Shown: positions 8,358-62,329, counted from the first letter of the whole stretch. The stretch: DNA of 63,790 nucleotides, filler included, from Collodictyon triciliatum (GCA_043381765.1; 9 parts of 9 records of this genome joined end to end with filler, not necessarily neighbours in it); one strand, 5' to 3'. The notes: generated by a model from the sequence alone, not told the origin. Numbers and translations are program-made.

Positions 8358-8457
8358 NNNNNNNNNNNNNNNNNNNNNNNNNNNNNNNNNNNNNNNNNNN
8401 NTTAATTAATTAANNNNNNNNNNNNNNNNNNNNNNNNNNNNNNNNNNNNNNNNNNNN
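8358..8457. other. Artificial contig-joining spacer N44-TTAATTAATTAA-N44; identical spacers at 16816, 25271, 30314, 38761, 45204, 53647 and 62103
   Basis: The same 100-nt spacer, with stops in all six frames, occurs eight times. Confidence 0.97.
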
Positions 8458-16815: not shown

Positions 16816-17643
16816 NNNNNNNNNNNNNNNNNNNNNNNNNNNNNNNNNNNNNNNNNNNNTTAATTAATTAANNNNNNNNNNNNNNNNNNNNNNNNNNNNN
16901 NNNNNNNNNNNNNNNAAAAACAAAATAAAAACAAAATAAAAACAAAATAAAAACAAAATAAAAACAAAATAAAAACAAAATAAAAACAAAATAAAAACAA
17001 AATAAAAACAAAACGAAATAAAACCCATGAAAACTCCCATAAAAACCAAAAACAAAATGTTATGAATAAAAGGCAACATACATAATTGAGGCGTTGCCCA
17101 TCTATTTGAGTGCTAAGTACAATAAGACACTTGGGATGTAACAGCAAGGCTCACGCCAAATTGATATTTAGGATCAAGCTGTTTGGAAAATAAAAGGAGT
17201 TGTAATATTTTCTATGCCTTTCCAATAATCCCTCCCCCTTTTTTTTTTCATGACAGACTGCTAAACAACCTTCTTTTCTTCTTTACATAACCATAACTTG
17301 CTCTTTTTTCACATAGCCCTCTTCTCTCCTTATTTCACTGAAATAACCGAAGGCTTGTCAATATTTTGGTTTCGTAAAAGACACATGCCATAGGATAATA
17401 TGGGTTCTGTGTACGAGAGGCTTAAAAATGATTATAATAATGAAAAAAATGCAACACATCAATTTCAACCACTTTTGGAGATATAATAACAAAGAAAGCA
17501 ATATTCACAATCTGATTTGACATATCCATTGCACCCACCGCCACTTGACAGAAAAGCAAAGAACAGTCCAAAACATTCTCAAGCATTAGCACAAAAATAA
17601 AACATTCATTCAATTTAACAATATTGAGGCAGGATCTTTTCTG

Positions 17644-22987
<5,344 letters not shown>

Positions 22988-25270: not shown

Positions 25271-25370
25271 NNNNNNNNNNNNNNNNNNNNNNNNNNNNNN
25301 NNNNNNNNNNNNNNTTAATTAATTAANNNNNNNNNNNNNNNNNNNNNNNNNNNNNNNNNNNNNNNNNNNN

Positions 25371-30310: not shown

Positions 30311-30476
30311 ATANNNNNNNNNNNNNNNNNNNNNNNNNNNNNNNNNNNNNNNNNNNNTTAATTAATTAANNNNNNNNNNNNNNNNNNNNNNNNNNNNNNN
30401 NNNNNNNNNNNNNAAAAAAACAAACAAAAAAACAAAAAAACAAAAAAAAACAAGAAAAAAAAAAAACACAAAAAAA

Positions 30477-38760: not shown

Positions 38761-39071
38761 NNNNNNNNNNNNNNNNNNNNNNNNNNNNNNNNNNNNNNNN
38801 NNNNTTAATTAATTAANNNNNNNNNNNNNNNNNNNNNNNNNNNNNNNNNNNNNNNNNNNNTTTGTTTTTTTTTTTGTTTTTTTTTTTTTTTTTTTTGTGG
38901 GGGGGGAGTTGTTGTCTTTGAGAATTTTTTTTTTTTTTTGTTTTCCCCCCCCCCCCCTGATTTTTGTGTGGATGCCTTTTTTTATGCCCCAGTTTTTTGT
39001 ATGTTTATTTATAAGCTGGTCACCAATTAGATGTCTTTCATCACATTAACCCTGCTTATACTTCAAATCAG

Positions 39072-40463
39072 GATTGATTGGCGAATATATCAAAACACTC
39101 CACCTTGACAAGTGCGTTGTTGTTGGCACTTTATTCATGTCAAATTATAGTAGCATTGCGACCGGTGGGACTGTTGTTCAGGTTTATTTTACAATATGAA
39201 AACAATTCGCCCATTTATGAAACGGATAAATAATTCCTTTGTCATCCACATGTGATCTATCTCTTGGATTAATATCTCCTTTTATTGTAGCGAGCACATG
39301 CCTTGAGCCAGATTCTTAATTGTCCAAATGCTGTTTTAGAAAAAGGTGTTGATGGGAACCAGCATATGATCGGTAAATCAGATAATAAAATAAAGACAAC
39401 ATAAAAGGATGATGCCCATAGCTTGCTAGATTTGACATACATTTCCACGATAGATTACAGATTTATTGTAGTATCGTTAGCTATATATTATAAGGCTAAC
39501 GATACTAGGTTTATTTTGGTTTTTTTTTCCTCAAAACTTCTTGTCTCTCCCACCATAACAATCAAATATTATTTTCTTTTAACCCCAGGCGATGTGACTG
39601 ATTCGGATGTCGTGATTATGTCTGATATTCTTGATACTTGCAAGACACTCCTTAGTTCCTTGGATGTTCTTAAGAAGTCAAAGGCAACTTTACTTTATAT
39701 CTTGCGGTTATAGTTTAGATTGATTCATCATAAAGTGATTCCTTATATCAACAAGGAACCCAGACGACAATATTTTTTTTTATTTTTTGCTGAATTTTTT
39801 ATAACTCATCAATACATTATCAATAATATTATTTTTCTGGTCATAGGCAAAACGCTTGATTGCTGTCGGTATTCACCCAATATTCAGCCCAGGGGCTGAC
39901 ATCATACAAACACTGCAAGATTCGTCCCTCGAGAAGATTATAGTTACAAACTCTATTGCGATTCCTGTTGGAAAGTGGTCAAAAGTGATTGTTTATTTTG
40001 CCGTGGCCTACAAATTATTTTGTTAACGACTTCATCGCTGCTTTGATTTGAATTGATTTTTTTTTTTTACCAGCAATCATGCTTCTCTAAACCACATTAG
40101 ATTCATGTCATCGATGTCGCCCCCATCCTTGCTGAGGCTGTGCGTCGTATTCACAACGAGGAGGTTGTGTTTTCTTTCTTTCTTTCTTTCTTTCTTTCCT
40201 TCTTTCCTTCTTTCCTTCTTTCTTTCCTTCTTTCTTTCCTTCTTTCTTTCCTTCTTTCTTTCCTTCTTTCTTTCCTTCTTTCTTTCCTTCTTTCTTTCCT
40301 TCTTTCTTTCCTTCTTTCTTAATATTTATTTCATCCTTTAATCTGTGACTACATATTTGTGTGGCACTCATGAAGAAAGAAAATTAGAGGGGTACAATCG
40401 GGTCACTAAAATCTCTGTCCAACAGAACTTCTAGGGTACCACTTGACGAAGAGCTACGGCTAA
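39072..40463 (+). CDS. Divergent ribose-phosphate pyrophosphokinase (PRPS/PRPSAP-like), C-terminal half
   Basis: RAHALSQILNCPNAVLEK..MIGDVTDSDVVIMSDILDTCKTL..AKRLIAVGIHPIFS..LEKIIVTNSI..IHVIDVAPILAEAVRRIHNEE. Confidence 0.85.
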
Positions 40464-40489
40464 TAAAAACTAAAAATAAAGAAATAAAG

Positions 40490-40546
40490 AAGCGGAACCA
40501 AAAAATTTTTTTCCTTTATTCGATTCAAAGTAAGCGGAGCCTAAAA
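40490..40546 (-). mobile_element. Ultra-truncated retroposon 3' end with diverged TSD
   Basis: AAGCGGAACCAAAAA and AAGCGGAGCCTAAAA flank poly-T plus CCTTTATTCGATTCAAAG. Confidence 0.65.
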
Positions 40547-40599
40547 TAAAATAAAAACCAATTTTTGTTTCTTTTTCCCCCTTAAATTTCTGGTATTCA

Positions 40600-42021
40600 T
40601 TAGAATAAATGACGTGCAATCCTTACAAAATGAATCATGCTTGAATAGTTTGGCACGAAGATGTGGTCTAAGTACACTAGAATATATATATATTCTTTAT
40701 TATTCACTTTGTTCAACAAAGTCATCTCCATTTGGATGAATATCGGCACCAAAAGCTGCGTCCCCTTCGTCTCCGATATCTTGATTTTGAGGCTCGTTAT
40801 CGTCCTCATCCTGGTGTGGGTCTGCATTCTCGAGGTATGGATTTACAAAGTCATCTGCCAACCGAGCAAAGCTAGTGGCAGGTTCTTCGTCTGGCTCTAC
40901 TTCTATGTCATCCTTGGATGCGTTTTCCTTCAAATAACGCGAAACCGTGCATAGGAGTGGAAGAAAAGAAATGGAAGGTGTGGTTGATGAGAGAAATACT
41001 GAGAGGTTCGCCTTCGTGTGGCTAGCTATCATCTGAGTGTGCTTGCTTGATAAAAATAAATGTATGTAATAATGGGTCTGTGTAACAAACGTATAGGTGA
41101 TTGTGTTCCTCGAATAATAAGAAATACTAGTACTAGAACTGACCTTGGAGCGTTTTCTGGGTTTCTTTACTTTTTCCACTGCCCCTTCTTCTTCGAGGAA
41201 ATCTTTGACAACTGAAATCTGCGAATCATACGAGTTTACCTTCACTTGCGTGTTTGTTATATGATGAAATAATCTTGCTTTCGTGTACAGTATTCTGAAT
41301 TTTACTCCATACATACATACATACATACATACATACATACATACATACATACATACATACATACATACATACATACATACATACATACATACATACATAC
41401 ATACATGTCCCCATGAGTATACAAACCATATCAGGTGTTTTGCGCAGAAAAAGATACAGGTCATCTGGTTGCACTCGGTTGCGCCGGGCATGCTTAGCAA
41501 AAAGTCCTAAATCTCGAGCTACCTGGCCTGTGCCGCAACATCTTTAAAAAAAACATTGTATTCTCACAAAGAAGGCACAGGAATGGTGATGGTTCGTGGT
41601 ATGCTGCATACAGCGTGTAACAATGGAGGCGCATATGAAGAGTATGATACGCTATTGATAAAAAGAAAAAAAGAAAAAGGGACGGGAAGGAGCGATGGTA
41701 ATAAACCTGAATGGAAGGTAAGGGTGGTCGCATCGGGTGGGTGGAGGGAGAAAAGAACCTGAGTATTGCAGCACAACTTCAGTAAGAGCGGACACGAACT
41801 GCTTGGTGACCGCCGCGCCCACTTTCGGGCCTGAGTCATGGTGTGAAGTCTGTAAGCATGGGGTTTGAGAACCTCGAGCTTGTCCTTTTCATAGCGAGCC
41901 TAGTCTCACCTTCTTGTTCGCATATTTTAGCGACCGTGTGGTAGACCGAAGCCATTAGCCTCTCATCAAAGGCGGTGCCTTCCGTATCGTTTTGTGCGTT
42001 TCCTTGATCCTCTCCTTCCAT
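40600..42021 (-). CDS. CENPS: Centromere protein S / MHF1 (histone fold) with an acidic C-terminal tail
   Basis: DERLMASVYHTVAKICEQE/GPKVGAAVTKQFVSALTEVVLQYS/GQVARDLGLFAKHARRNRVQPDDLYLFLRK matches the CENP-S histone fold. Stop at 40700 or 40600 depending on the last intron. Confidence 0.88.
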
Positions 42022-42196
42022 CTGGTGCTCTCTCTTTGAGTGGGGAAGCAAGTTATATTGACCGAAAAGGTGATTTTATTATTGCTATGGTCTTGTTTTG
42101 CATGTCACCCGTGCCGCGTGGCGGCGTTGCTGATCGGCTCGACCCGGCTCCACTCGATTGATCATAATTTTTTATTCAGCTTTAATGTAGTTTTTG

Positions 42197-42320
42197 CTAG
42201 AAGAGTTCATATATCTTCCGATTGGCAAACTTGGTGCGCTCGTATCCAAGGTCTCACCACTTTTTTCACAAAGATCGTGTAGTGGTGAAGACTGCCAGGA
42301 AAGACCCGACAGCCTGTTTT
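42197..42320 (-). ncRNA. Putative Fanzor omegaRNA scaffold
   Basis: Nested helices at the 3' end of the Fanzor ORF, minus strand: TCTTTCC/GGAAGA, TGGCA/TGCCA, GTCT(T)CACCACT/AGTGGTGAGAC, CAC/GTG, CTTGG/CCAAG. Confidence 0.6.
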
Positions 42321-44190
42321 TTTAAAGGAAGGTGTATGCATTTTTTGAAGGATTGGAAGAACTTTGTTGAGTATATCATTAGCGCTGTTAAAGTCCATCA
42401 TCAAGAATACAGTTTGTTTGCTTTCTGAGCGATTGCATTCTTAACATATGAGACATATATACAACTTTTTTGTATATCCTTTCGGTATCATATATTCCAG
42501 TTCTTTTTCGCAGTTACAGCACATCTTGAAGGTTCTAAATTCATCTACACTGATTGTTTCAAAACGTTTGGATAGTATTTTTTCGTAATCCTCTTCCGTT
42601 TATTGCCATCAAATGGTTCATCTGAGATTTTCTGCTTCAGTCTCCATACACCAGTACAACACCATCGCCGATTGTCTTTTCCATTCGGTCCATAAACAAT
42701 TTTTCACTTCTTTTTGTATTAACATACTGTCCCCATCTCAACTTTCGAAAAGTTACTTGTTTATAAAATCTGGAAAGTACTATCCGGAATCATAATTCCA
42801 CAGATACATATTATCGAAATTATTCATAATCGACTGTACTTTAATTATGTTTACTCAATTCTGTCTCTAAATCGATTAAAGATACTCTTGATGTCTCAAA
42901 CTGCTGATTCTTTTCAAAAGTCATGTGACCAAAAGAAACAACACTGTGTAAATCTGTTGTCATGCATATAGCTGAAGCCTTGTACTTTTTTTTTCTTGCA
43001 CAAGAGTATTTTTTGATTTTTAAGAGATTTGCTTTCATGTCTTGTTTGATGTGCCGTGTAACGTGATTTCTTACCTGCCTCATCCACCATGCAAACAAAA
43101 TTAAACTTGCCTGCATCCAATCTAACTATTTATTTATTCGCTATTAAAAATAACTGCTCTTCGGAAAGTTCATCTATATAAACAATCCCGGAGTTTTTTT
43201 GATAAAATTGGAATTTTGAATTTGAAATACCTTTTCAAACAATAATAACACCGCCAAACCGTCTGTTTGTATCATGCATTTGAAATTTTAGTCTCATTGA
43301 TGTAAAGGCCCTCTTTTTCATTTCAAAGAACTTATCCCATAGTGTATCTTAGCATCCTGATATATTCTTCATTGATAATGTTTTCCAGTTGATACTAATA
43401 GACTTATCAAACATGCAGTATCTAGAGTTATATGACACGGTATATTGTTAGTTCTTATAGAGATTGGTTGATACAGTTTGGTTCCAATGTCTTAAAAATG
43501 TGATTCATGTATATCAGACATGTAATGTACTTATTTGGATTGACTTTGGTGCCATATTCGATACCATTTACAATATCGCTGAGAATGATATGATGCAAAT
43601 GCATTATAGCCCATCCTTTATATTGTTCAGTATTTCGAGTTTCTTGAAGATAGCTTTTTTTAACTTTCGTAACTCTGCCCTTTTAATGGCTTCCGTCATA
43701 TTCTCATCTTTAGGAACTTTTGATTTATAAAGCGCAGTAACCTCTTTACAAAATGCTCCTTGATTTTATTATGATGAGCTGTGAACATTTGTTTCGCCAA
43801 GTACGGTAATGCATGAGACAGTCTAACCAACAGAAAATGTTCTTATCGGGACAAAAGGAATCGAAAATCATAGATAAAAAGTCATCATATCTTTTCTCAT
43901 ATCTGATCTTTTAAACTTGCGGGTATATCTTGCGGAACTATTCCGAATGTCTTTAAAGCGAACAAAAAACACATTTCATCGATTGTTGGGAGTAGTTGTG
44001 ATTTCTATATGTAACATATTACATACAGATAAGTGTCGGTAACCAAGTTATGACACAATAAAACCGTATCGTTGATTTTGTCGTAGTCATCCGCATTCTT
44101 TACAATCGACTTTAGAGATGTTTTCACATTTCGATAGTATGGTTTTACAGACTTTATATTCTCAGACTCAAGATGTTTTCTTTTCTTCAT
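42310..44190 (-). pseudogene. Fanzor1 (eukaryotic TnpB-like RNA-guided endonuclease), frameshifted and stop-disrupted, about 620 codons
   Basis: Reconstructed across frames: MKKRK..YRNVKTSLKSIVK..KINDTVLLCHNLVTDTY..LPTIDE; LPYLAKQMFTAHHNKIKEHFVKRLLRFIN; RuvC-I IVRLDAGKFNFVCMVDEAGKKSRYTAHQTRHES; LETELSKHN..FYKQVTFRKLRWGQYVNTKRSE; RuvC-II ISVDEFRTFKMCCNC; zinc finger CLIC*EC; RuvC-III MMDFNSANDIL. No introns. Confidence 0.88.
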
Positions 44191-45170
44191 CTGAAAGTTT
44201 TTGTTTTGCTTTTTTCCTTTAGGAAAATACCGAGTTTTCAATTTTAATAAAACTTAAGTCTATTATCAATTTCACAAAAACAACTGCATAAAATCAATTC
44301 AGTTAAAATTAAGCATCTACCAAGACTCTCAAAATGTGCGCATTGTGGAAAACAAACACACAAAGTTTTTTTTTTGTAAATGATTTGAGACAAAACGCTG
44401 AAAGCCGATTCGGCGAGTTCGAAAGGACGGCCGTACAGCCGTTGCGACTGAAAGTCATCATATCGACCCCAAACAACGTGATTACCGCCGCAAGTGTGGA
44501 TAGTATGCTTTTTTGAAATGCATATTTGGTGGTAGAGGGTTTATAGGGTGGGTTCTGTCTGGGCCAAGCCAAGGGCTTGTTTGTAATTTTTGAATATTTG
44601 AACTAATATTTAATAAATGAAAAATAAAATATAAGCTGATTACAGGAATAGAATTGAGATAATGAAGTATTTTTAAGCTTATTATATATACTAATCATAC
44701 TATTATATTATTCAGGTTGCTTCTTGGATTGATCAAAGCTCCTGCTTTCGTCAATCCAGATTTAATTCGATGGTTGTCTGTGCAATAAATCGCCATATGT
44801 GTGGGTACACTTTCGTTGTATGAAAAGTGTTGTGCCTTGAAAGGGATAAAACCGAGTTCGTCACAACCTTTGCGATGAAGTTTATCTATTTACAGGCTGG
44901 ATGAGACCGAAGAGAAAAAGAAAAGAAAAAAGAAAAAAGAAAAAAGAAGAAAAAGAAAAAGAAAAAGAAAAAGAAAAAGAAAAAGAAAAAGAAAAAGAAA
45001 AAGAAAAAGAAAAAGAAAAAAGAAAAAGAAAAAGAAAAAAGAAAAAGAAACAGATGAATGAATCAGAGCAACTAATACTGAGCACTATAATCATAATTAT
45101 CTCGCTACCCGTGGGTGGATGGCCTTAAATTTGATAGGTCTTTCTTATTCCTCTTTATTATTATTATTAC

Positions 45171-45203
<33 letters not shown>

Positions 45204-45303
45204 NNNNNNNNNNNNNNNNNNNNNNNNNNNNNNNNNNNNNNNNNNNNTTAATTAATTAANNNNNNNNNNNNNNNNNNNNNNNNNNNNNNNNNNNNNNNNN
45301 NNN

Positions 45304-48400: not shown

Positions 48401-49323
48401 TTTTTTCCACTTAAATCAATATGACATGGGTTTTTTTATCTTAATTGGAAAGTTGATAATTGGATAAGTATTCATGGTCAACATGGTGCTAGCGGCACAT
48501 TGTATAAAGAATTGATTACTCGGTATAAGTCTTCCCGCCGATTGAGGGGACAATACTTTTCACTTTCTCCCATGCAACAGTACTAAAAGATGAGTCACCG
48601 TCTGAAGGACCCGACGAAATGGACTGAGTGGCGATGGTGGAAGATGATAAAGGACGCTTGAAAGTTTTTTCTGATGTGAGTATCTCTTCAACAGCCTGTA
48701 GGTGAGTAAAGACAGCCTTTATTAGGATTATTGGACATACAATTAAATTAACATATGTGATAATGTCAAAGGTTTTGAAACCTGGGCAGCAGCACGGACC
48801 ATGTTGTTGTAAGCATCTCCCTTTACAGGATCAGGCTCGGCTCTGTAATCTATACATTTCTCGATAAGTTTTTGGCTCGATTTAAAAAATATCAGATATA
48901 CCACAAGCGTACTTTTGTATGAACGAATGATGTCAATCTTTTGATTGAGAACTTCTGCAAAATCGGCGGGGCCTTTCTGCGCTAGATGTTTCATACAGTT
49001 AAGGGCCTTGTATTTTGGATGGGTTGAAACACCCGTATTGAGTCTCTTCACAAGTAAGTCAACAAGCAGAGCAGATGAGGCCGACGACTTTTGGCAAAGA
49101 ACTAAGTAATGACGAGCAATCATAGTCTAGTTAGAGGACGGAGACAAGATGATATTTGACAATTTTTAATGTAACATATTTAATGATTGCTTCTTTATTT
49201 TCTGAAACCTATGAGCTCGTTGTATAGGTATCCGGGAGTTGGCGCAGCTTCATCAACAGTGGCCTTTCTCACAGTGGACGCTTCGTCCGACATGAAATTA
49301 GTAATCTGAGACAACTGCTCCAT
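45467..49323 (-). CDS. TEPSIN: Tepsin (AP-4 accessory ENTH + VHS-like protein)
   Basis: VRKATVDEAAPTPGYLYNEL..LLVKRL..KYKALNCMKHL..PDPVKGDAYNNMVRAAAQ; second domain TPEERLIDAAILNPNTRVSPPPE..LENPEWQVR..KCLYFIDGLL; S/K/D-rich and Pro-rich tail. Confidence 0.85.
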
Positions 49324-51380: not shown

Positions 51381-53746
51381 TGCATCAAATATAATAAATA
51401 CAATGAGATATCATGGCGATTTTTTTTTGTTTTTAGCTACTGGTCGAGTGATTATGGTGGTATCTGTAATAGGGATAAAAAGAACGTCTAAGCAAAGCGC
51501 AATAGGCAGTATTATTGGTATCATAGAGAAATAAATAAAGGGTTAGAAAACAAGCAAAGAAGCCAGAAAATGAACAGGAATGAAAATGAATGAGCAGATA
51601 ATTATGCATATGAAGTGTTCTTTGATTTTAAGTACAAACGGAATCGACACTGCCACTTTCAGTGGGAACCTCGCTGCTAGTTGGGTGAGTGCGATCGCTC
51701 GGTGTCCCCTTCCCTCTTGACTCCTCCTGCCAAGGAGTATCACTTGAGCCGGCTTTACTTGAAAGACTTGAATTGGATCCCATAGAAGAGCTAAGAGGAT
51801 TTTCAATGCAACCATAATAACTTGCAAGATTAGAAGATTGATCGGAGGGGGAAGGGCGATGGACTGAAATGAGTCGTATAGTTTACTACGGCGTTGAAAG
51901 GGATGTTTTTGCCTGGGTTCAGGAACAAAGTCTCGTTGTACCGCTCATAAACTTATGGTGGTTAGAGTACTGCCTCTGCGGGTTCTTTGAAAGCTCCTAC
52001 CCCACGCGATCAACATCGCCACGCCCTTCACCACCTCTGATCTCGTGTGGATTCGCGAAGCAAGACTTATCTCGTGCCTCACAACAAACGACTGTAATGT
52101 CAACATAACCCACAATTCCATTTTACGTACACTAGCATAAGTTTATAAACCTATAGACACGTTGATGGAGGAGGGGTCTAACTTCTTGGGACAAAGGTGC
52201 TATGCTGATGTGTTACTTCGCACAACACTCGATATACAAGTACAATGCGATGTTAACACGTCCGCCAACGTGTCGGTCCGTTAGGATACTTAGCGGGGAG
52301 CAATCCCACTCTTCGTCTGTGTGGGCGTCGCAGAGGGCGATGTACGGTACTTGTCAAATTGACGGTTCCTACATTCGCTTGTTTGCCATGAGATTCCTCA
52401 TAATGCGTGTCTCCAACTTGGATTCGTTGCATGCTAATCGTCTTAGCTCTGGTGAATCCTTCTCTGCGACATTGTTCTGCACAGACTGTCCATTAGAATG
52501 TCTCTCATCGGATATCCTAATGGCCGGGCCCCAAAGGAGCCTGCAAAAACACCTGGCGCCATCACCTCCCCAACGAAGCCAACCCCCCAAGTTTTTTTTT
52601 AAAAAAATTTTTCTTTTATTTCACCAACTATTTATCATTTTCAGAGTCACGAGAGAAGGCATGGCAATATTTTCTTGCAGTCGATCGTAATATACATCTC
52701 GGTTATGCTTCAGCAATGTCCATCGTGAAAACAGAAACATTGGGATAAAATAAACCATTCGCCCAATCTAAGCTACTTTGGTTGCGGCACTTCCACGTTG
52801 TTGGGCTCATGGTCCGGATAGTTATCGGGGTATGTAATCTATCTTTTGCCAGAAGGCAGAATTATTTCCTCGTTTAAAATAAATACGAGGAGGTGGCAAT
52901 CTCATGATTTTTTATTATGAAAAAGAAGTTGTAGTATTATTAACTATATACTATAGAGGTAATAATACTACAGATGCACCCTTTCTCTTGTGGACAGTTG
53001 CGCCCATGTTACAGATAAATATATTTAGTAAGAAGTAAAATTATGCTACGTTTCGATGCTGCTTTATTTCCCCCAATTTTTCTTTTTCTTTTTGTTATTA
53101 TTATTATTACTATTTTTTTCTTATTCTCCCTTTCAATTTGCGCAAGATGAGTAATGTTTTTTGCGTTCACGTGTTAGCTTTAAGACAGCACAACCCATGC
53201 GGGTTTTTTCTTTTATGGCCAGTATTTTCTTTTCGTACACCCTACATAAAGTGAGGGAAATTATGGCTTTGATTCTTTAAGCTCTAAATGTCAGATCATG
53301 TTTTATGAAAAGAATTGGCGACGTGGCACTCGATCCCAAAGGCTGCCAGCCGGAGCGAGAGAACACATATGACAAAAACCACCGCATCTAGTGCGACCAA
53401 CAACCCTTTTCTATTCCCCCGTCCTCGTTCCTTTCTTTATCTGTTTTCTTTGCTGTTCTTTGTTGTTCTTTGTTCTTTGCTGTTCTTCTTTCCTCTTCTT
53501 CTTTCTTCTTCTTCTTCTTTCTTCTTCTTTCTTCTTCTTTCTTCTTCTTCTTCTTCTTTCTTCTTCTTTCTTCTTCTTTCTTCTTCTTTCTTCTTCTTTC
53601 TTCTTCTTTCTTCTTCTTTCTTCTTCTTTCTTCTTCTTTCTTCTTCNNNNNNNNNNNNNNNNNNNNNNNNNNNNNNNNNNNNNNNNNNNNTTAATTAATT
53701 AANNNNNNNNNNNNNNNNNNNNNNNNNNNNNNNNNNNNNNNNNNNN

Positions 53747-56700
53747 CCATATTTTGGTGGTGGAGTTTTTAGCGGCAAAGTCGGAATTGAGAGTGCATAG
53801 TTAATGCGATGCAGCACTTCGCCAGAGTCTGGAAGAGATTAAAAGGGCGACTTAGAATATTGGAATTCAAAAAATTAACAAATCATTTCATCCATCAATT
53901 ATAAAAATCAGACATGTAAGCCTTATGAACACTGATGAATACCCAAATCTATCACAATCACATCATTCAAGACTTCCTGTCGATAGCCACCAAAGATATG
54001 AAGCTCATTGTTTTTTTGGCCATACGCAAATGATTGTCTTCCAAATCGGCATATTGCTCCCTCGTCCGAGCACTCAAGACACTTGTTTAGCTTTATTTCA
54101 TGAATTTCCGAGTTTTTCATAACTAATTAACCGTTCATATTGATTAAAATCACTACCTCTATTATACAACATCTTTAATTTACATACAATTGAGAAAACT
54201 CGATTAATTAAGTTGATACCTTCATCCATCTTGACTAAAGATTCAGAATCGAAGAGCCCGTCACTTCCGCCGAATAGAATGTATTTACCACTTCTCTTGA
54301 GTAGGGAGCCATATACTCTCGGATATTCCATGTCATTTTTTGCAATTGTTTTCCAAGTGTCAGACCCTGAAATATTCATTCGATTTTTTTTTAAAAAGTA
54401 GCAATTCCGAAAAAAGAACGACTTGAATATTTTCTTACTTGGATGATATTTGTAGATACTCTCAATCAAGGTCCCATTTTCCTGTATCCAAATAATTTTG
54501 TTGGATTTAGAGACAATTATTAATCATCAACCGAGCAATCAAAGTAACTTACATGCTTCCCACCATAAACGTATATATAATCTTCATCACTTAGACATTG
54601 ACTTCCGATAAATGATGATGGTGATTTCGACATTCTCTTCCATTCAAATTGTGCAGCATTAAATTGATAGACGTAATTATCTGGTTCGAAGGTTTTCCCT
54701 CCAATCAAAACACCCGAAACATTCAACGACACAAAACAAAACTGAATTCTGGGTCGAGGTAGATTTCCGACAATATTCACATGATTCCATCTTGAATTGG
54801 CTGGAGGAAAAGAATTATCAAATACAGGAATTTCTTGACATATTCGCATACTATAGATAGAATTTTAGTGGAATACCTGTAGTGTTTGTAAAGTAGACCA
54901 CGCTCATGGGATGGTACATGCCATAATCATTTACATCCGAAGAAGCGCTTCCTCCGATAACAAAGATATTGGAATCAATCAAGGCTGCACTCCCAAATAT
55001 CACTGGAGGTAGTTCCGTGCTCAACTCTAAAGATTCACTTTGCCTCATCTTGTGTATATCTGTGCAGTTATTTTACTATTAAATTCTCGTGAAACGAAAT
55101 ATATTACTTGAATGAGAATTTGATTATGTTGATGTTTACCGTTCATTCCTTTTGGCATATCTTCATAAATGCATGTGTTCTTCAGATGGGAAATTGATTT
55201 TAATTACACGTTTGAATTATTGGCACTATTTTATATTACGAAATTCAAAAAAAATTGAGAAATAATATTAATGGCCTTACTTGATTCTCCCTTGGTTGGT
55301 GCATTCCTTTCGGACATGGGACACATTCACCTCGAAAATTAATAAAGTTTCCAGATGGACAAATACACCCAGACAGGTTTGAGATGAAGCCAATCTGACA
55401 ACCTATCAATCCAAATAAATTATTGGTTGATAATTTCTTTAAATTGATGTTTAATATAGTTTTTAATATCCCAATTACCAAATAATTTAACTGAGAATCC
55501 CTCATCTGGAATTCCATCTCCATCCACACGGAAAGAAAGCCTAGAGTTCCCAGATGCGATGTAGATGGATGTCCCTTTTTCCAGACTTGATATATCGAGC
55601 TACATCCCACCACAAGTGTTTTAGATTACAAATTGATTTTTATGAGTTGATTCGTTTTCATTTCTTTTTTTACATTTTTTACATGTTTTTGAAATGCTAT
55701 GATAAATACTGTCTAGTAACAAGAGTATGGCCTCCATTTAACTTACCCTTCTAGATTTGGTTTTATTGAAGGATATGACTCCATCGCATTGTGTAATTGT
55801 TTCCAAAATGAGCTGCGCGCCTTTACTCAATTTCATATGCTCAATCTAAATTAAAAATTCACGGAATTGGTTTAGAAACATCTATTAACATAATTTATCA
55901 AAAATCAACACCTAATAATTTAGAAATCAATTAAATATCTTACCACGATATAGTTTGTGCTCGATACAATCCATGTGCATTCAGAATTTGGATAGTACTT
56001 ATAATCTCCACTTCCATCAGATATAGTGAGGTCATTGGCTGTAATGTATGAGGTTCCTCGGCACCAAAGTTTGCCTGAATTATTTTCATGGTTAGTAAGT
56101 TGTAAATTTAGACTCCGTCTTAGACAATCTTCGCTTTATGTCTCAATAATATAATAAGTTTCAAGTGTTTTCATATTTAAACTCAAAACCTACTCAAATC
56201 AAGTGAGTACATTCCATTTGTGGTGGCACTCTCCGCATCGCCTCCAAACATGTATATTTTACCAGATAATAAAATGGAAGAAGAGTATACCCTTCCTGGT
56301 GCTGTGGTTGTTTGTCCTGCAATGGTACTCCACTTTCCAGAATGCACTGAAATTTGATGAAAAATGATTATGTGCGTTGTCATGCAGCAAAAAAATTTCC
56401 GTTATTTCTATCGTCATAAAATAATTTATCGGAATAGAAAAAAAAATTAATAAAAAAGTATCATTCATTCGAAATTCATGACATTTTACCATCACTTATC
56501 CAAAAATCTCGGGTTATGTAATCTAGATTGTTAAATCCTCCAAAAATAAAATAATGAACGTCGTATCCAAGAATCACTGGGTAATCAGAGACACTTGCTG
56601 GCACTTTTCCCACCAAATTCCAAACATTTTCTCCTTTAAAATAAAAGCAATAATTTTAATATTTATTTCATCCAAAAATAATTTCAATATATTTGATGTT

Positions 56701-61960: not shown

Positions 61961-62329
61961 GTGAGTTAATATACTCCTTTTATTTTATCTACTTTTTTTA
62001 TCTTCTTTTTTTATCTTCTTTTTTTATCTTCTTTTTTTATCTTCTTTTTTTATCTTCTTTTTTTATCTTCTTTTTTTATCTTCTTTTTTTATCTTCTTTT
62101 TTNNNNNNNNNNNNNNNNNNNNNNNNNNNNNNNNNNNNNNNNNNNNTTAATTAATTAANNNNNNNNNNNNNNNNNNNNNNNNNNNNNNNNNNNNNNNNNN
62201 NNAAAAAGGATGAAGTAATAATGTTTTTTTGTTTTTTTATGAATAAAAAAAGTGTTTTTTTGGTGTGTTTTTTTTTTTTTTTTTTGGTTTGTGGGGGGGG
62301 GGGGGGGGGGGGGGGCCTCAATAATACTA

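Follow-up and report, generated by a model that had tools for sequence, protein, structure and literature searches.

The guide RNAs of Fanzor nucleases have been described as lying at the 3' end of the nuclease gene, where they abut the right end of the element and may overlap the open reading frame (in the accessible text of PMC10530073 and PMC10432273). The available part of the account by Xu et al. (2024; PMC11423790) gives the Fz1 omegaRNAs a length of 75-150 nt with the first stem-loop alone conserved, and states that the region between this stem-loop and the guide varies by species and 'may not be constrained'. Fanzor1 as a Helitron passenger is described by Jiang et al. (2023; PMC10530073), there as a Helitron2 association, as far as the consulted sections report. 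Helitron1 elements, for their part, are described in the accessible text of Bao and Jurka (2013; PMC3627910) as having one 3' subterminal hairpin and 5'-TC and CTRR-3' ends. The locus considered here occupies the minus strand from 42335 to 42197 of a window of 63,790 nucleotides, the window being the whole stretch of DNA that was analysed. Our analysis favors, at somewhat better than even odds (a rough probability of 0.55), its being the remnant omegaRNA scaffold of a dead copy of a Fanzor1-type transposon.

The window is eukaryote-like, with a GC content of 0.28-0.45 and microsatellites, and it is not continuous: separate pieces are chained by linkers made of 44 N, the all-frame stop linker TTAATTAATTAA and a further 44 N. 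Such paired 44-N runs mark the joints at 8358-8457, 16816-16915, 25271-25370, 30314-30413, 38761-38860, 45204-45303, 53647-53746 and 62103-62202, with a spacing that is mostly ~8.45 kb; the linker was read directly at 38761-38860 and 45204-45303, and the six other joints were inferred from the same paired-N pattern. Because the window consists of joined pieces, adjacency across the joints is not real, and the stretch that a first-pass annotation had flagged as a candidate scaffold, 42197-42320, belongs to the piece 38861-45203. Self-comparison by blastn revealed no second copy of the Fanzor region in the window. Exon-like reading frames of ordinary host genes are present on other pieces, one with an ENTH domain at 48746-49126 (minus strand; 26.9 bits, which exceeds the cut-off) and one at 54523-54864 (minus strand) whose Kelch-repeat matches are sub-threshold, the best at 30.4 bits against a cut-off of 50. 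Both were considered as neighbors of the element and dropped because they sit across linkers. Microsatellites of the AAAAG-like purine/pyrimidine, TTA and ACAT types lie on both sides of the element, at 44900-45203 and 41283-41500; the upstream tract lies past 44880, the limit to which the repeat family was followed, and still inside the same piece, and it may belong to the element.

The gene whose 3' end runs into the flagged stretch is on the minus strand at 42266..44190, with an ATG at 44190 and a probable ancestral stop, TGA, at 42268-42266. Translated alignments (tblastn) of two relatives, P0003 (634 aa, residues 3-617) and P0047 (648 aa, residues 1-632), extend from 44190 to 42291 and pass through three frames, and those of P0003 are interrupted by 25 or more in-frame stops and by three or more frame changes. 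Still discernible in the pseudogene are the RuvC D/E/D codons and those of the CxxC..CxxC zinc finger, within aligned motifs that read LDAGK, VDEFRT, CCNC..CLIC.EC and MDFNSAN. Searched with HMMER against 1.84 billion representative proteins, one read-through frame with X at the stops returned 37 matches at E <= 1e-3, of which 11 were at E <= 1e-10 and one at E <= 1e-30. The TnpB/Cas12f zinc-ribbon family PF07282 was recognized at E <= 0.01 in 8 of the 12 relatives scanned, above the curated cut-off in P0016 and with 37.3 bits in P0048, while the window's own protein fragment scored 14.5 bits (E 0.041); a Pfam scan of its three read-through frames yielded no family, and the C-terminal piece matched nothing in a word-based protein search. 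Judged from these alignments, the gene is a dead Fanzor-type (TnpB-like) nuclease gene. We take it to be a Fanzor1 rather than a Fanzor2 on account of its size of ~630 aa and its giant-virus and eukaryote relatives, an assignment made without a tree.

Among the relatives, P0047 is by far the closest full-length one to the window gene, the next-best sharing 53-59% identity with its C-terminal half. It is an intact protein, encoded on a public contig of 2,610 nt, and its existence implies that the family is alive, now or recently, somewhere. The C-terminal tail of P0047 matches the other frame of the window, the open reading frame 42397-42266, and because the tail tracks this frame the ancestral stop was probably the TGA at 42268-42266; the frame change itself is probably situated in the A-run at 42318-42324. 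The residues '...QAVG...ALTV...' in the same tail hint that P0047 preserves both arms of hairpin 1, the first of the hairpins described below. With the stop at this position, ~70 nt of the flagged stretch, and likewise the first ~70 nt of 42335-42197, would formerly have been coding tail and the other ~70 nt 3' untranslated region.

The gene is one of many copies. Nine public runs were identified by search, all with small shares and none of them recorded as RNA. Contigs of four public metagenome runs were aligned to 41600-44880 at a likeness of at least 80%, and matches, mostly of 80-95% identity, numbered 139 in run X1, 163 in run X2 and 449 in run X3, the last being a run that we guess to be RNA and whose contigs serve as DNA-like evidence of copy number only. 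The family contigs span roughly 42204 to 44880, the last base compared, and their depth in X1 and X2 is zero at 42040-42149. This coverage places the gene in a multi-copy, diverged repeat family that continues beyond the start codon, on its upstream side, for 690 nt or more (44191..44880, minus strand); the left end of the element was not found in the piece, which ends at 45203. With the window's own piece as the query no related loci were retrieved from viral or metagenome contigs, and P0047 as the query found nothing among the viral contigs. At position 42578 one base is missing relative to the window in seven X1, one X2 and five X3 family contigs, and the frame junction of the window is also read through in P0002, a protein fragment that another copy encodes, so that some of the frame changes seem to be subfamily-wide, which hints at the amplification of copies that were already dead.

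In the first-pass annotation the flagged stretch was drawn as a multibranch fold built from five pairs of complementary segments. The segments themselves are all present where it placed them and amount to 6+5+5+11+3 = 30 base pairs, among them the 11-bp stem at 42251-42261/42281-42292 with its single bulge, and the GAAGA..TCTTC hairpin that it noted beside CTAG (42197-42200) is there as well. Their assembly into a multibranch structure is not favored. As minus-strand RNA this fold reaches -27.4 kcal/mol (-31.0 with the rest left free to fold) against a minimum free energy of -39.6, it is no better than the mean minimum of shuffled sequences (-28.3), and its two closing helices have ensemble probabilities of ~0, whereas the core hairpin, 42255-42261/42281-42287 with 42267-69/42277-79, has p >= 0.9. 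What is predicted instead at the energy minimum of the minus strand is a row of four tandem hairpins, from 42315 to 42199. Hairpin 1 (42289..42315) pairs 42315-42305 with 42299-42289 in 11 bp around a 5-nt loop; three of the 11 pairs are G-U, and the hairpin would for this reason form on minus-strand RNA only. Hairpin 2 (42254..42288) has eight Watson-Crick pairs, 42288-42281 with 42261-42254, enclosing a 5-bp stem (42279-42275/42271-42267) and open to a 3-bp extension as far as 42292/42251, with pair probabilities of 0.9-1.0. Hairpin 3 (42222..42250) comes in two competing versions, the first (CUUGG/CCAAG, 42250-42246/42234-42230) with a probability of ~0.09 and the second joining 42249-42246 plus 42242-42238 with 42230-42222. 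Hairpin 4 (part of 42197..42219) pairs 42219-42214 with 42204-42199 and is followed by AG at 42198-42197, the last two bases of the terminal CTAG at 42200-42197.

Against shuffled controls the minus strand of 42330-42170, the interval that the first-pass annotation had proposed for this comparison, stands out (z = -3.37; 1 of 200 shuffles as stable), as do 42320-42197 (z = -2.92; equaled by 2 of 200) and the full candidate scaffold of 139 nt, 42335-42197, which runs from the codon equivalent to the 'RP' of the relatives to the element end (z = -3.54; equaled by 0 of 300). The plus strand is weaker, with z = -1.49 (18 of 200 shuffles) and -2.02 (13 of 300). When both strands of the whole window were scanned in stretches of 124 nt, 31 of 3942 such segments (0.8%) folded as well, or 3 of 470 when matched for GC content, and Rfam gave no match to the flagged region at E <= 1. 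As modeled, the fold is real, strand-biased and unusual, yet not unique, and its weight derives from its location, precisely the place at which a structured RNA would be looked for. The possibility that a decayed coding tail and 3' untranslated region merely fold well by chance, and never were a scaffold, draws on that frequency in the scan, on single stems that by our own estimate are short enough to be common, and on competing alternative folds that leave the pairing not unique. The location, however, was fixed beforehand by the gene and not picked by the scan, and the two strands differ in fold strength; together with the comparison to relatives taken up below, these points lead us to regard a chance fold as unlikely. 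The coding past of part of the stretch, which could have constrained its sequence for other reasons, counts against the scaffold reading.

The right end of the element had been placed near the CTAG at 42197, and the metagenome contigs, few as they are here, agree in that those of the family appear to stop at ~42204-42213. One X1 contig stops at 42204. Two from X2 lose their match to the window before 42213, still read CTAG in register, and then enter unrelated flank that starts with T. The base after CTAG is thus T in this second copy and C in the window. A search of the window for an inverted copy of the end gave 4 matches at up to 3 mismatches against 8.05 expected, of which only the end itself lies in the piece, and no terminal inverted repeat was found in the window. 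These features invite a second reading, in which the hairpins and CTAG are a DNA-level transposon end, for example the 3' end of a Helitron, and the Fanzor gene is a mere passenger, with no need for a guide RNA to be made from this stretch. A CTAG directly after hairpin 4 has the form of a CTRR 3' terminus with a subterminal hairpin, the T that follows it in the second copy and the lack of inverted termini in the window are in keeping with such an end (Helitrons insert between A and T without duplicating the target), the family reaches further upstream of its reading frame than the compact viral elements described below, and the capture of Fanzor1 genes by Helitrons is on record in the accessible text of Bao and Jurka (2013; PMC3627910). 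Several details fit less well: the window copy has C and not T after CTAG, no long reading frame like RepHel, which autonomous Helitrons encode, is present in the window, hairpin 1 depends on three G-U pairs and so points to RNA rather than DNA, and four hairpins over 120 nt exceed what a Helitron end needs. The hairpin of a Helitron usually lies some bases upstream of the terminus, whereas hairpin 4 abuts CTAG. We consider a purely DNA-level role distinctly unlikely, and note that the two readings may both hold, the scaffold possibly having been built on a transposon end.

The closest relatives of the protein whose DNA could be compared lie in giant-virus contigs. Relatives, identified with a profile of eight full-length proteins, are encoded in 438 of 467 candidate giant-virus contig stretches from IMG/VR, and 78 viral loci (within L012-L103) were kept, with 61 distinct scaffold segments; the proteins are 29-45% identical to that of the window. 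The distance from the 'RPxxF' codons to the end motif (...GGTGTA) is 134-187 nt in 76 of the 78 loci, the two outliers being a contig end and a divergent locus, and the corresponding distance in the window, 42335-42197, comes to 139 nt. Conservation is strong among the 61 viral segments, which overlap the part of the reading frame that encodes the C-terminal tail, and RNAalifold assigns them 18 pairs, 11 of which show double-sided changes. Their 5' module has the form GUCU - UUCAC - 7-bp variable hairpin - GAAAAAGUU - AGAC, with 96.2% of cells paired and double changes in 9 of 11 pairs, values that none of 500 shuffles reaches and that compare with 38-53% paired in slid controls. In the last viral stem an internal UUUUACA... 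pairs with the terminal ...GGUGUAA, so that the transposon end itself is one arm. Identity across insertion sites ends 4 nt past the motif where L018 is compared with L020 and L021 and 0 nt past it for L040 and L043; the other 10 groups of identical viral segments represent the same locus in related genomes and are uninformative on the element end. By the covariation in these alignments, the position equivalent to the flagged stretch carries in the viral relatives a genuine, conserved RNA structure, and this structure stops at the element's right end. The conserved tails of the viral proteins (...EKVRPS, ...EKVGQSVDF) probably reflect RNA rather than protein constraint. The viral elements measure ~1.9-2.0 kb and are probably the PGv-1-type mariner elements of Bao and Jurka (2013; PMC3627910), going by the accessible description. 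Their scaffolds have a median z-score of -2.99 (range -5.8 to -0.46; 49% at or below -3; n = 61), a distribution that brackets the window's value.

The window stretch matches these scaffolds in place and strength of folding more than in sequence. A blastn comparison of the window with the viral loci found similarity in coding sequence only (window 42653-42405), and of two covariance models built from the viral set, R1 (159 positions, 18 pairs, 61 scaffolds) and R2 (the 5' module; 58 positions, 48 scaffolds), the first gave 30 matches at E <= 10 and the second 31 in searches of the whole window, none at the flagged stretch. The best R1 match in the window, at 20799-20951 (minus strand; 19.1 bits, rough E 0.016), was considered as a second scaffold and set aside, as tblastn finds no Fanzor-like coding sequence adjoining it or at any other place in the window outside the pseudogene, and it is probably due to chance. 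In a search restricted to 251 nt (42150-42400) both models match best at 42257-42290 (minus strand), with 4.0 bits (E 0.24) for R1 and 3.4 bits (E 0.51) for R2, and here CUUCAC-CAC...GUG-AAAAAAGU of the window is aligned with viral UUUCAC-hairpin-GAAAAAGU. Hairpin 2 is in this way weakly like the viral module 'UUCAC - hairpin - AAAAAGU - AGAC', both have GUCU...AGACC around the module, and the protein tails are ...KKVVRPW in the window and ...EEKVRPS in the viruses. The invariant viral motifs (UUGAUUUUAC and the GGUGUAA end) are absent from the window stretch, the 3' half of which consists of two local hairpins followed by CTAG. Two short hairpin-2 motifs used as queries retrieved 11 metagenome loci, none of them window-like by blastn, and no viral locus; six bacterial matches among the results were dismissed as chance. 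Taken at the level of sequence, the likeness is weak, a resemblance and not a demonstrated homology, and undetectable RNA homology is unsurprising given that protein identity to the viral clade is 29-45%. The pattern as it stands, a 5' module that is alike and a 3' half that is different, agrees with the published variability of the guide-proximal region (PMC11423790, accessible text). The lack of a significant match to either covariance model adds to the case for a chance fold; on the other side, a structured RNA is found at the same position in every intact relative examined, and the z-score of the window equals those of the relatives' proven-conserved scaffolds.

Simulated decay sharpens this last point. 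When random substitutions were introduced into the 61 viral scaffolds, the share with z <= -3.5 fell from 34% (none) to 7% at 10% and 0% at 20% substitution, and the median z went from -2.95 to -1.1 and -0.17. Decay of 10-20% would thus usually erase z-scores of the kind seen here, which argues against a fold left over by chance, and the window value of -3.54 is typical of an intact scaffold despite the stop-riddled gene beside it. It is possible, as had been proposed, that the stretch is better preserved than the reading frame. The sole listed X1 contig across the scaffold (42204-42394) has 8 differences from the window over 192 positions, and the seven other listed X1 pieces show 16-25 differences per 150-218 nt. 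An extension of this idea is that the scaffold has never gone out of use, with dead copies acting as 'ghost' guide genes from which an intact nuclease of the family would draw its guides in trans. In its favor are a fold strength typical of intact and unusual for decayed scaffolds in the simulation (n = 61), the intact close relative P0047 (648 aa) in public data, the single X1 contig that is closer to the window over the scaffold than the other X1 pieces are elsewhere, and stand-alone guide copies reported from Chlamydomonas in the accessible text of PMC10530073. However, the relatives that reach 50% identity to the window are, P0047 excepted, fragments of no more than 391 aa on short contigs, and we hold continued use in trans to be quite improbable.

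The reading that we prefer remains a remnant omegaRNA scaffold. The original proposal is supported by the position, at the 3' end of a Fanzor pseudogene on the same strand and with the probable ancestral stop inside the stretch, by the apparent end of the repeat family there, by the strength of the fold (z from -2.9 to -3.5 on the minus strand versus -1.5 to -2.0 on the plus strand), and by the existence of a scaffold at this place in the relatives; the multibranch fold is not supported, and R1 and R2 gave no support for homology to the viral scaffolds. A live element would be transcribed in the minus-strand sense, as the nuclease mRNA or as an RNA of its own, through its last ~120-140 nt and past its end at 42197; hairpins 1-4 would presumably be held by the nuclease, and the ~16-21 nt of flank that follow, read downwards from 42196, would guide cleavage of the empty target site. 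The putative guide flank of the window copy, 42176..42196 on the minus strand, begins CAAAAACUACAUUAAAGC, its placement following the TnpB/Fanzor design as given in the accessible text of PMC10530073 and PMC10432273. Homology to the relatives' scaffold, past or present transcription, binding by the nuclease and the start of the guide are inferred. With its nuclease gene destroyed, the copy could work only with nuclease made elsewhere. A bolder proposal combines several of these strands: many dead Fanzor1 copies in a eukaryotic genome would keep an intact, RNA-specific scaffold that could serve a rare intact family member of the P0047 type in trans, with the 3' half rebuilt on a Helitron-like hairpin-CTAG end that replaced the viral mariner-type end. 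We consider it very improbable. Were the rebuilding of the 3' half true, the guide-proximal domain would be re-made whenever the nuclease gene enters a new transposon superfamily, and the combination of a similar 5' module with a different guide-proximal domain and element end may be of some interest for how omegaRNAs adapt when the transposon host changes. If the scaffold is confirmed, the locus would be one more, probably inactive, Fanzor1 guide-RNA locus of small practical value, and a eukaryote-resident Fanzor1 family tied to the giant-virus clade, which fits the published idea of a viral spread of Fanzor genes.

Set beside the systems already described, the locus resembles the omegaRNAs of SpuFz1, GtFz1 and PpFz1, which in the accessible text of PMC10432273 and PMC11423790 are structured RNAs that run from the 3' end of the gene to the right end of the element, the guide lying past this end. 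It shares with the GtFz1 omegaRNA in particular, as presented in the same sources, an overlap with the last codons (17 aa in GtFz1) and the presence of several stem-loops (four in GtFz1). It differs from all three in that the RNA of the window is putative and its gene dead, and the likeness is one of description and not of sequence. Like the giant-virus Fanzor1 scaffolds, it occupies the same position relative to 'RPxxF' and is comparable in length and in strength of folding; unlike them, it ends in a local hairpin and CTAG, whereas the viral ...GGUGUAA end takes part in a long-range stem, and the upstream part of its family exceeds that of the viral elements of ~1.9-2.0 kb by 690 nt or more. 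The animal, algal and mimivirus Fanzor fRNAs of Jiang et al. (2023; PMC10530073, accessible text) resemble it as multi-copy elements in which a conserved non-coding RNA on the 3' side adjoins the right end, and the window family may already be catalogued among the published fRNA families. The resemblance to Helitron 3' termini, a hairpin and then CTRR (CTAG in the window), follows the partial account available from PMC3627910, and is set off by the C that flanks the window copy and by several hairpins, one of them RNA-specific. The omegaRNA/reRNA of the ISDra2 (IS200/IS605) TnpB likewise has, according to the accessible text of PMC10432273, a scaffold that overlaps the 3' end of the gene and a flank that serves as guide, but these RNAs are prokaryotic and have a different fold. 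Taken together, the stretch is probably a further example, and probably an inactive one, of the design published by Saito et al. (2023), Jiang et al. (2023) and Xu et al. (2024).
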